Origin: Paludibacter sp.
Lineage (GTDB): Bacteria > Bacteroidota > Bacteroidia > Bacteroidales > Paludibacteraceae
Direction of reading: 5' to 3'
DNA: 24,000 nt
Assembly: GCA_028710895.1 (NCBI GenBank)
Contig: JAQTTH010000002.1
Span: 299,605-323,604 of the forward strand
Below, in pieces: positions 14,345 through 18,468 of this stretch. The translations under genes were made by a program, and so were the position numbers. The stretch's first letter is position 1, and the number at the start of each line of letters is the position of its first letter. Under the pieces are notes generated by a model that worked only from the letters and a program-made list of their open reading frames with translations, was not told the DNA's origin and ran no database searches.

Positions 14345-14375
14345 TAGTCGAGAAGATCTACTATTCCTGACAAAT
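14345..14375 (-). promoter_or_regulatory. Copy A of the ATTTGTCAGGAAT-N12-CGACTA motif; putative ECF-type promoter of the 16-gene array
   Basis: The plus strand reads TAGTCG-agaagatctact-ATTCCTGACAAAT. It ends 21 nt upstream of the ATG at 14324. It is identical at 19 fixed positions to the copies at 16087-16117 and 16994-17024. Confidence 0.6.
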
Positions 14376-16086: not shown

Positions 16087-16117
16087 TAGTCGGCAAGAGC
16101 TAATATTCCTGACAAAT
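16087..16117 (-). promoter_or_regulatory. Copy B of the ATTTGTCAGGAAT-N12-CGACTA motif; putative ECF-type promoter of the NrtS-like/AhpD-like/hydroxylase operon
   Basis: The plus strand reads TAGTCG-gcaagagctaat-ATTCCTGACAAAT, 37 nt upstream of the ATG at 16050. Its spacer also matches copy A at 8 of 12 positions. Confidence 0.6.
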
Positions 16118-16176: not shown

Positions 16177-16216
16177 TGCGGTTTGATATTTTTCGTTACT
16201 TTTGCAGAAAAAAAGT

Positions 16217-16648
16217 ATGGAGTATTCCTTTTCCGGTTCATTTGGAAATCTATCGAGTAGAATTTCGCTGCAACTTAGAAAAGTTCTTATAAACAATTTG
16301 AAGAAGGCCGAAATTGAGATAACGCCTGATGAATGGTTTGTTATCTCAAAATTATATCATTCAGTATCGAGCACACAAAATGATATTGCAGAACATTTGG
16401 GATTAAGTAAAGTGAAAGTTACCCGTTTAATAGAGCAGCTCGAAAGGAATAAATTAATTCAGCGGGAATCTGAAGATGGTGACAGAAGGTTTAAAAATGT
16501 AAGTCTTACTAAAGTTGGAAAATCATTGTATTTGAAAGTTGAACCCATTGCAAAAAAGACATTAACGCAAACATTCTCAGGTTTCAGCGAAGATGAACAG
16601 AAAATATTTTTAGACTTTTATGTTCGGATATTACGTAATTTAGATTAG
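16217..16648 (+). CDS. MarR-family transcriptional regulator
   Basis: The winged-HTH region reads QNDIAEHLGLSKVKVTRLIEQLERNKLIQRESEDGDRRFKNVSLTKVG. It is the only plus-strand gene in the window. The track start at 16202 is a TTG; an ATG lies at 16217. Confidence 0.8.
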   Translation: MEYSFSGSFGNLSSRISLQLRKVLINNLKKAEIEITPDEWFVISKLYHSVSSTQNDIAEHLGLSKVKVTRLIEQLERNKLIQRESEDGDRRFKNVSLTKVGKSLYLKVEPIAKKTLTQTFSGFSEDEQKIFLDFYVRILRNLD

Positions 16649-16651
16649 AAC

Positions 16652-16912
16652 TTAGTGTTTGTCTTTGGTTAGTTCTTCCTTAATCTTACTTTTCAATTCA
16701 TCTGTATTGTGATGAGATTCTTGGTGTGAACGAAAAATAGCATCGTCGAGGAACTTGCTTTGTTTTTCGTAATTAGTGCAAGCATCGCACATGGATTTAT
16801 GCATTGTCAACCGAATTTTCTCAGAAAGAGACAGTTTAAACCTCAGTTTTTTTTCTATTAATTCTGTAGCTTTCAAACAGGAAAGAAACAGCAGTTGCAT
16901 AAGTTTTTTCAT
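16652..16912 (-). CDS. Small zinc-binding anti-sigma factor (ZAS HxxxCxxC type), no TM segment
   Basis: The MHKSMCDAC motif matches H-x3-C-x2-C. The ATG at 16912 lies 7 nt after the sigma gene stop. The track's TTG start at 16930 would overlap the sigma gene. Confidence 0.55.
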   Translation of the reverse strand: MKKLMQLLFLSCLKATELIEKKLRFKLSLSEKIRLTMHKSMCDACTNYEKQSKFLDDAIFRSHQESHHNTDELKSKIKEELTKDKH

Positions 16913-16919
16913 AAGTACT

Positions 16920-17471
16920 TTAATTTTCAAACCAATTTTTTTGAATACAATTTCTTAGTTGCAGTTTAGCCCGGTGAACTATCTGCCAAAAGTTAGTCGT
17001 AGCAATGCCCAATTCCTGACAAATTTCGTCACTGCTTTTTTCGCTCAGGTATTTAAGCTTTACACTCATACTCCATTTTTCGGGCAATGCATCTAAACAC
17101 ATTTTCAATACACCTTGAAAATCAATATCGTCGAGTAAATGCCCATCTTCCGTCAACCAATTAGTTGGCTTTTTGTTTTCGTGCCAATCACCACCTTCAT
17201 CAAAATAATTTTCTAGTGAATTGTCTTCAAACTTTAGCGGCTGGTTTATTTTCACCCTGTAGTAATCGATAATTTTGAAATTCAAAATGGAGAACAGCCA
17301 AGTTTTTGGCGAACTATCTCCCCTAAAGCTTCCAATCTTTTCGGCAGCCGCCAAAAAAGTATCCTGAACCAAATCCTCAGCCATTTCGGTTGATGACGTT
17401 TTGTGATATGCCCAACGGTAAAGCTCATCGGTGTATTCAGAAACCCAGTTTTCCAAGAGTGCGTTTGTCAT
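16920..17471 (-). CDS. ECF-type sigma-70 family RNA polymerase sigma factor
   Basis: 183 aa. Region 2 reads AEDLVQDTFLAAAEKIGSF...PKTWLFSILNFKIIDYYR. The region 4.2 HTH reads SDEICQELGIATTNFWQIVHRAKLQLR. Confidence 0.9.
   Translation of the reverse strand: MTNALLENWVSEYTDELYRWAYHKTSSTEMAEDLVQDTFLAAAEKIGSFRGDSSPKTWLFSILNFKIIDYYRVKINQPLKFEDNSLENYFDEGGDWHENKKPTNWLTEDGHLLDDIDFQGVLKMCLDALPEKWSMSVKLKYLSEKSSDEICQELGIATTNFWQIVHRAKLQLRNCIQKNWFEN
16994..17024 (-). promoter_or_regulatory. Copy C of the ATTTGTCAGGAAT-N12-CGACTA motif, inside the sigma factor coding sequence; putative internal promoter for the anti-sigma gene
   Basis: The plus strand reads TAGTCG-tagcaatgccca-ATTCCTGACAAAT. It encodes ICQELGIATTN of sigma region 4.2. 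It lies 82 nt upstream of the anti-sigma ATG. Confidence 0.45.
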
Positions 17472-17565
17472 ATATTAATTTATTTTCAGTTCAACAATTT
17501 CAAGTAACATAAGTTTATTGCAATGATATAAACAAGTTCGATTAATTTGAATTAATACCTTTGCT

Positions 17566-18468
17566 CTATTTCCAAAGTGGCTCATTCTGCCAGTCATTTT
17601 TCATGCCTAATGCGTTGGGATCTACATTTGGGTATTTCTCGAAAAGGTTGTATAAGCATTTAGTAAAGCTGTTTTCAGGTTGTATAATATTCAGCAAATA
17701 TTTCATACAACACAAATGAACATATAGCTTTTGAAATTCATTTTCTGTAGGAACATCTGCCACCCATGCATAAGGTGGTTTGGGCAATAATTTAGGTCGT
17801 CCAGGCAAATTCCTATTCCAAAGCCTGCTGTGATGGGCGCAGTAATTGCGTATTTGTGCAATAGACTGCAACCAACTAGGTAGAAAGGTATGATTCACAG
17901 TCCCAAATTCTTTTGCAATAGTATCTTTTGAATCGATAGAATGTTTTAAATTGCCATATAATTTTGACAGACTCCCGAAACTGGTAAGTTCTAATGCTTT
18001 CCATGCTGGTGGAAATCGAGTATCATCTTTGTGCTTTTTTTTATGTTCTTGTATAAACGTGTCTTTAGATCTTGTAATCTCTTCGTCCATAGCAAAAAGC
18101 GTTTTAATCAGTTCGCGTGAATCACTAAAAATTGTAGTGTCCTGAAACCACCATGGACTTATTTCGAGAGATAAATGGTGAATTAATTTTGTGCGGAGAC
18201 TGATTTCAATCTTCTCGATAACATCAAAAAGAAGTGCTCTCAGTTCTCTATCAAAATTATAAAGAGCAATTACGTCACAAAACTTGCTTCCGGGTTTAAA
18301 AATATGATTCATTTTGTCTTCCTGCATTGGCCACCAATATCCGGCAAGGCGATAATAACTGATATGTGACAGGAGATGAACAGCATTGTCTGTTTCTTGT
18401 ACTTGCAAACCTCTTTGATTTAATTGGTCTATTTGTTCCTGAATGCTAAAAGCTCTTTTTTCAAACAT
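17566..18468 (-). CDS. Abi_2 (AbiD/AbiF-like) abortive-infection family protein
   Basis: 300 aa. The N-terminus FSIQEQIDQLNQRGLQV..., then ISYYRLAGYWWP and a later IRNYCAHHSRLWNR motif, match my recollection of the Abi_2 family. Confidence 0.7.
   Translation of the reverse strand: MFEKRAFSIQEQIDQLNQRGLQVQETDNAVHLLSHISYYRLAGYWWPMQEDKMNHIFKPGSKFCDVIALYNFDRELRALLFDVIEKIEISLRTKLIHHLSLEISPWWFQDTTIFSDSRELIKTLFAMDEEITRSKDTFIQEHKKKHKDDTRFPPAWKALELTSFGSLSKLYGNLKHSIDSKDTIAKEFGTVNHTFLPSWLQSIAQIRNYCAHHSRLWNRNLPGRPKLLPKPPYAWVADVPTENEFQKLYVHLCCMKYLLNIIQPENSFTKCLYNLFEKYPNVDPNALGMKNDWQNEPLWK

Follow-up and report, generated by a model that had tools for sequence, protein, structure and literature searches.

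Does the coding sequence of an ECF sigma factor gene in Paludibacter contain a promoter for the anti-sigma gene that follows it? The locus lies in the 24,000-nt stretch of DNA that was analysed in full (the window, to which all positions refer unless stated otherwise), and the question is raised by a two-block, promoter-like motif, here called copy C, inside the codons for region 4.2 of the sigma factor. We consider it likely, with a probability of roughly 80%, that copy C functions as a promoter and that it is recognised by the ECF sigma factor in whose own gene it lies. The evidence for this prediction comes from the comparison of sequences.

The sigma gene (16920-17471, minus strand) is an ORF encoding 183 amino acids and is TIGR02943-like. 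Pfam matches cover Sigma70_r2 (3e-16) and Sigma70_r4_2 (6e-8; residues 122-172), and the ECF superfamily model TIGR02937 gives 81.4 bits, above its cut-off of 42.9. With regions 2 and 4 only, a size in the range of about 180-200 amino acids and a match to the superfamily model, the protein has the characteristics of ECF (group 4) sigma-70 factors. The best-scoring specific model is TIGR02943 (Sig70_famx1), with 141 bits under a curated cut-off of 162.2; the protein is a relative of this family and no formal member. A genome-wide model scan found it to be the single TIGR02943-like gene in the 4.9-Mb genome, the runner-up gene scoring 46 bits, and the TIGR02943 cut-off was exceeded in none of 14 control genomes. 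Among solved structures, M. tuberculosis SigH (5zx2) is the best match. Genome comparison did not find the sigma gene in 36 other species of the genus, and more distant orthologs were therefore used for comparison. Since the distribution is patchy, the locus may be horizontally acquired.

The next gene on the same strand (16652-16912, minus strand) encodes a putative anti-sigma factor of the ZAS (zinc-binding) class I type, small and soluble. Counted from the ATG at 16912, which lies 7 nt past the sigma stop, the product has 86 amino acids. The ORF finder's alternative start, a TTG at 16930, would extend it to 92, and the gene calls of relatives begin at the ATG of MKK.... The protein carries HKSMCDAC, of the pattern HxxxCxxC, together with an upstream Cys (LSC), as ZAS class I proteins do by their motif definition. 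No Pfam match was found in this small ORF, and the anti-sigma family NF052368 of NCBIfam scored 45.8 bits against a cut-off of 50. The arrangement is common to the family, as a small HxxxCxxC ORF directly follows the sigma gene in 77 of 88 orthologous loci. On the other side of the anti-sigma gene, a MarR-family gene (16202-16648, plus strand; assigned by Pfam) is convergent with it across a gap of 3 nt (16649-16651), so that a transcript from copy C would carry the anti-sigma gene alone in this genome. No terminator-like site was found between the anti-sigma gene and marR. Transcripts from copy C would also extend antisense into marR.

Copy C (16994-17024, minus strand) reads ATTTGTCAGGAAT-N12-CGACTA on the minus strand and occupies sigma codons 150-160. 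The initial annotation had placed it wholly within the sigma ORF, in the codons for ICQELGIATTN of the region 4.2 HTH, and the limits of the ORF and of the Sigma70_r4_2 match bear this out. The predicted -35 element TGTCAGG (17015-17021, minus strand) consists of the codons for C151 (TGT) and Q152 (CAG) and the first base of E153, and the predicted -10 element CGACTA (16994-16999, minus strand) of bases 2-3 of the T158 codon, the T159 codon (ACT) and the first base of N160. In the alignment with SigH (5zx2), C151-L154 fall into HTH helix 1, with C151 opposite the Ala of 'EIAEIM', and T159/N160 are at the start of the recognition helix. The -35 element would therefore be written in Cys151-Gln152 codons of HTH helix 1, and the -10 element in the Thr158-Thr159-Asn160 codons with which the recognition helix begins. 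The spacing, TGTCAG-N16-CGAC, is of the type seen in ECF promoters and comparable to TGAAAC-N16-CGTA of B. subtilis sigmaW. Copy C is on the sense strand of the sigma ORF and upstream of the anti-sigma ATG at 16912. From the typical geometry of ECF promoters, transcription is predicted to start 6-9 nt past the -10 element, at 16985-16988 (minus strand). This would give an mRNA leader of about 75 nt, in which the first AUG would be the start of the anti-sigma gene; on inspection of the sequence, no ATG was present between the predicted start and 16912.

The exact motif TGTCAGGAAT-N12-CGACTA, with 16 specified bases, occurs three times in the window, always on the minus strand (14345-14372, 16087-16114 and 16994-17021), and 0.12 matches with up to 3 mismatches were expected in the window search. 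The whole 4.9-Mb genome contains the same three exact copies, within 2.7 kb and on one strand. Copy B (16087-16114, minus strand) is a predicted intergenic promoter in front of genes for NrtS-like, CMD/peroxidase-related and fatty-acid hydroxylase proteins, and copy A (14345-14372, minus strand) is another, 21 nt before the first GH113 gene.

For comparison, orthologous loci were collected in a first set of 80 from species genomes (35-61% protein identity), with 7 closer ones (67-87%), and in a replication set of 80 independent metagenome loci, 77 of them usable. External sites were defined as matches outside sigma ORFs, on the sigma strand only, that differ from the motif variants in no more than two bases. 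The fetched loci contain 46 of them (45 distinct sequences), versus about 1 by chance according to a rough estimate. A weight matrix was trained solely on the 45 external sites, none of which lies within a sigma gene. Matches to this matrix are nearly all on the sigma strand, and many are 255-330 nt past the sigma stop. In more than 100 loci, external copies share the strand of sigma and stand in front of genes. The positions of TGTCAGG have the highest information content of the matrix.

The two-block version of the matrix was used to scan the 9.8 million positions of the genome and gave 18 matches of at least 17 bits. Copy B was first (29.9 bits, the top-scoring site of the genome), copy A second (28.4 bits) and copy C fourth; with the original matrix, derived from sites outside sigma genes, copy C scores 26.2 bits. 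A further match (C22:347717, plus strand; position 118 of locus L182) reached 26 bits; its gap is 13 nt, it falls within an HPPK (folK-like) gene, and it is probably a false positive. A fourth copy of the motif, TGTCAGGATT-N12-CGACTG, scored 21 bits and is found about 1.6 kb past the low end of the window (G000:C22:298024-298051, minus strand; locus L183). It precedes genes for tRNA_anti-like, YceI, thioredoxin, AhpC/Redoxin and cysteine-dioxygenase proteins. The same gene families also follow or flank sigma and anti-sigma genes in close relatives, which ties the motif to a conserved sigma regulon and indicates that sigma is separated from the regulon operon in this genome by the arsenic and GH113 genes. 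The nature of these genes suggests that the sigma factor governs a thiol/oxidative stress response, consistent with an anti-sigma factor of the ZAS type. That the motif is the promoter recognised by the sigma factor is what we infer from this co-occurrence.

The internal position is conserved far beyond Paludibacter. Among the genome loci, it scores at least 12 bits with the external-site matrix in about 70 of 84, the TGT being located 96-123 nt (most often 102 nt) before the sigma stop, and in the first set most of these sites exceed the 99.99th percentile of the scores at all positions. In the replication set, the site is found at the same place in 67 of 77 metagenome loci. When all distinct orthologs are taken together and the two-block score is used, 132 of 165 (about 80%) have the site at these codons, and by their record labels the carriers belong to Bacteroidota, Ignavibacteria, Calditrichota and some Deltaproteobacteria and Nitrospirae bins. 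Carriers that can be cultivated include Labilibaculum antarcticum (L093), Pedobacter steynii DSM 19110 (L027), Mariniflexile fucanivorans DSM 18792 (L025) and Flavobacterium fryxellicola DSM 16209 (L043). It is absent in about 20% of the orthologs, some of which nonetheless have the ZAS gene (for example L048 and L054). Internal sites have a lower median score than the external training sites (about 23 versus about 30 bits), and in some close relatives the internal -10 element is CTACTA, not CGACTA. The internal promoter may be weak in such relatives.

The closest cultured and metagenome relatives (L093-L097) have external sites in front of rhodanese-thioredoxin genes in which the gap is 11 nt and not 12. 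In these loci, the intergenic sites are 505-1372 nt past the sigma stop, and the internal -10 is often CTACTA. It seems that both the spacing and the strength of the -10 element are adjusted individually at each site.

The 94-nt gap upstream of the sigma gene (17472-17565, minus strand) contains no site of at least 12 bits with the external-site matrix. It had been noted at the outset that the motif was missing from these 94 nt and that the usual promoter for positive autoregulation seemed absent, and the same now holds for nearly the whole family. By the two-block score, a site is located at most 300 nt upstream of sigma in 1 of 151 orthologous loci, and in the first set the 950 nt in front of each sigma start were free of sites. 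With the full matrix, three loci of the replication set have a site in front of sigma, at a distance of 59-149 nt, and two of the three lack the internal site. These two metagenome loci (L168, with a site 60 nt upstream, and L171, with one 149 nt upstream) have the classical autoregulated layout, which is rare in the family. In five other loci (L107, L110, L147, L161 and L167), a minus-strand motif precedes the sigma start by about 90-130 nt; the opposite orientation of these copies suggests a divergently transcribed regulon gene. As for a promoter of another kind, a scan for E. coli-type promoters around the Paludibacter locus gave nothing above the shuffled expectation, and no exact Bacteroidetes-type TAnnTTTG was found by eye in the 94-nt gap. 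An Abi_2 gene (17566-18468) directly adjoins the sigma gene.

The position of the motif would have a simple regulatory consequence. As no cognate promoter is found upstream of sigma, the sigma and anti-sigma genes would presumably be transcribed together from a housekeeping promoter or by read-through. Stress would free the sigma factor from the anti-sigma factor and thereby turn on the regulon, and at copy C the free sigma factor would lead to the synthesis of more inhibitor and of no more sigma. Since the inhibitor would thus increase and sigma would not, the circuit would amount to negative feedback, and the response would be self-limiting with a fast shut-off.

Sites downstream of sigma complete this picture. 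Eight loci have a site at most 40 nt past the sigma stop, all eight lack the internal site, and the internal-site codons are unconstrained in them. In the first set, a site just past the stop was seen in six loci. A ZAS gene follows only in L050, and the others have a different next gene, or none was found, so that the description as a relocated anti-sigma promoter strictly holds for L050 alone. The majority of loci have a second site 255-330 nt past the sigma stop, just beyond the anti-sigma gene, or sites with an 11-nt spacer before thioredoxin genes, which implies that the regulon has its own promoter. Judged by sequence matches, nearly every member of the family thus has one cognate promoter that is located after the main part of sigma and before the gene that follows, and hardly any has one in front of sigma.

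These positions also bear on a reading in which the internal site would act on sigma itself, either because RNA polymerase with the sigma factor, bound there, hinders upstream polymerases that transcribe the sigma gene, or because the site titrates the sigma factor. The same sequence conservation would then be predicted, the site is in the path of any sigma transcript, and the degenerate internal -10 of some lineages could favour binding without efficient escape. We nevertheless regard this reading as unlikely, since external copies of the motif stand at promoter distances before genes, since loci without the internal site have a post-stop site that could not block sigma but could drive the next gene, and since the predicted leader is free of AUG codons up to the anti-sigma start.

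Equally improbable, in our estimate, is that the internal promoter mainly serves a downstream regulon operon, in which the anti-sigma gene happens to be first, so that the feedback would be a by-product and the arrangement in the window a remnant. It is true that in close relatives a small ORF and rhodanese-thioredoxin, YceI and AhpC genes come after the anti-sigma gene on its own strand. But the separate sites past the anti-sigma gene or in front of thioredoxin genes, present in most loci, would make such a role of the internal promoter unnecessary, and in the window a convergent gene comes right after the anti-sigma gene, yet copy C is an exact match to the motif.

If copy C is a promoter for the anti-sigma gene, its bases should be conserved beyond what the protein requires. 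The initial annotation had supposed such a dual constraint, as protein code and as DNA signal, and had proposed to compare codon choice at this position in orthologous sigma genes. The comparison supports it: about 80% of the 165 orthologs have the motif at the same codons, and the synonymous positions of the motif are strongly biased, while elsewhere in the gene synonymous sites are saturated, as follows from the pairwise identity of 0.29 at 4-fold sites outside the motif. Codon 151 is TGT in 77 of 88 genes (background 52% TGT). At codon 152, CAG outnumbers CAA by 38 to 1 and AAG outnumbers AAA by 34 to 3, against backgrounds of 46% CAG and 24% AAG, respectively. The third base of codon 158 is G in 60 of 88 genes versus 22% in the background (p=1.5e-20), even though the encoded amino acid varies (S/P/A/T/V/M/K), and codon 159 is TCT or ACT in 61 of 88 genes. 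When codon use, conditional on the encoded amino acid, was tested in 178 columns, columns 152, 158, 159 and 151 were among the top five deviants, and the remaining one reflected the AGY/TCN split of serine. The control columns Gln163 and Cys175 of the same domain were unbiased. Bias was weaker in the spacer codons, with 153 and 150 low in the top 15 and 154-157 absent from it.

A recoding control, in which the codons of each gene were redrawn synonymously from the family's own usage, led to the same result. In the first set, the median site score was 22.6 bits for the real genes versus 7.3 bits after recoding, and 63 of 88 genes were in the top 5% of their own distribution. In the replication set, for which the control was the maximum over candidate positions, the medians were 23.5 and 8.6 bits, with 54 of 77 genes in their own top 5%. 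On this statistical evidence, the bases of the internal site are under selection at the DNA level, beyond the protein code.

Selection on these bases could also act in the mRNA, for instance if they formed a structure, or a site for ribosome loading, by which the anti-sigma factor is translated in coupling with sigma; the distance from the site to the anti-sigma start is about 100 nt, and the two genes are adjacent or overlapping. We consider this very improbable, because at each position the conserved bases fit the matrix of non-coding sites, the 12-nt gap included, and because the much weaker bias of the spacer codons leaves a pattern that is explained without RNA structure. Least credible of all is a coincidence, by which the amino acids of the HTH and the codon bias of an AT-rich genome would spell the motif by chance: the residues C-Q/K-E-L and S/T-N are indeed conserved and these genomes commonly use the codons TGT, GAA and ACT, but CAG, AAG and NCG are disfavoured and yet dominate at the motif columns, real genes score far above their synonymous recodings, the third-position G of codon 158 is kept across amino-acid changes, and the genome has just three exact copies.

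The internal and external sites of a locus mostly agree in their two variable bases. At position 4 of the -35 element (C or A), the two agree in 68 of 72 loci, and C or A goes with Gln or Lys at residue 152. At position 3 of the -10 element (A or T), they agree in 61 of 72 loci, and A or T goes with Thr or Ser at residue 159. On the protein tree, there were 6 changes at the former position and 10 at the latter, with 2 and 4 well-supported independent pairs, respectively. The changes were never in opposite directions, and they are too few for a sign test to reach significance. The covariation, as seen in the sequences, is thus no more than suggestive. It is conceivable, although we would not count on it, that protein and target are locked together in evolution by the location of the promoter in the codons of the very HTH that reads it. 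A regulon -35 of TGTAAGG (not TGTCAGG) is found with Lys152 (AAG) instead of Gln (CAG), and a regulon -10 of CGTCTA (not CGACTA) with Ser159 (TCT) instead of Thr (ACT).

If this coupling were functional, residues 151-153 and 158-160 would be dictated by the promoter and not by the function of the protein, and each member of the family would carry a readable copy of the promoter variant used by its own regulon. Promoters could then be predicted for an ECF family without an autoregulatory site in front of sigma. Apart from this, the analysis provides a predicted target promoter and feedback logic for a widespread, uncharacterised family of ECF sigma factors and ZAS anti-sigma factors, together with a predicted core regulon of thioredoxin, peroxiredoxin, YceI and CMD genes. 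One stretch of 28 nt appears to be selected both as protein code and as transcription signal, with a cost that is visible in the codon choice.

A literature search found nothing specific on this Bacteroidota sigma family or its motif. In the ECF classification, promoters are predicted on the assumption of autoregulation, and no motif is given for groups that are not self-regulated, as far as the account in PMC7826278 goes (Casas-Pastor et al. 2021). By that account, a promoter search confined to upstream regions would call the present family "not autoregulated, no motif", which may be a blind spot. The family has several features of canonical ECF autoregulation, namely a two-block promoter, a co-encoded anti-sigma factor at position +1 and regulon genes nearby. 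The difference lies in the position of the cognate site, which hardly ever precedes sigma; the two-block score places it there in 1 of 151 loci.

Internal promoters that uncouple an anti-sigma gene from its sigma gene had been described as uncommon in the initial annotation. Uncommon they are, but the arrangement is documented, in sigH of C. glutamicum (PMC3489674) and, according to the citation in PMC8595263, in rpoE of E. coli. The latter case is rseA P3, a sigmaE-dependent promoter within rpoE, 228 nt before rseA (Rhodius et al. 2006, as cited in PMC8595263). On the basis of that citation, rseA P3 resembles the predicted copy C as a site within a sigma gene for transcription of the anti-sigma gene without sigma. 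Its start, 228 nt before rseA, is however outside the region 4.2 codons, and E. coli rpoE also has an upstream sigmaE-dependent promoter for positive autoregulation, unlike the present family. Moreover, in the same cited system, RseA is a membrane anti-sigma factor controlled by proteolysis, whereas the putative anti-sigma factor here is soluble and of the ZAS type.

The closest parallel is PrshA of C. glutamicum, a SigH-dependent promoter within sigH with a start 62 nt upstream of rshA, which is supported by Northern blot, primer extension and reporter fusions (Busche et al. 2012, PMC3489674). The C. glutamicum sigH gene itself has SigA-type promoters, and the authors propose that the arrangement permits a quick shutdown of the response (PMC3489674). 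In both systems, an ECF sigma factor and a small soluble HxxxCxxC anti-sigma factor are encoded in direct succession, the cognate promoter (predicted in the present case) is in the 3' part of the sigma gene with a leader of similar length (about 75 nt here versus 62 nt), no cognate promoter drives the sigma gene, and the proposed role is the rapid shut-off of a thiol/oxidative stress response. The differences are that PrshA has been proven by experiment and copy C is predicted from sequence, that the sigma factors belong to different ECF families (TIGR02943-like here, in Bacteroidota and neighbouring phyla), and that the consensus is TGTCAGG-N15-CGACTA here versus GGAAT-N16-19-GTT. PrshA has also been described as a peculiarity of C. 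glutamicum in comparison with Streptomyces and Mycobacterium (PMC3489674), whereas the embedded site reported here is kept in about 80% of 165 orthologs, under measurable constraint at the codon level. A feedback through the anti-sigma gene only, known from one Corynebacterium species, could thus be an ancient trait of a whole family. The design of an internal anti-sigma promoter is already known; what is new is the family in which it is found, the depth of its conservation and the measurable constraint of dual coding.
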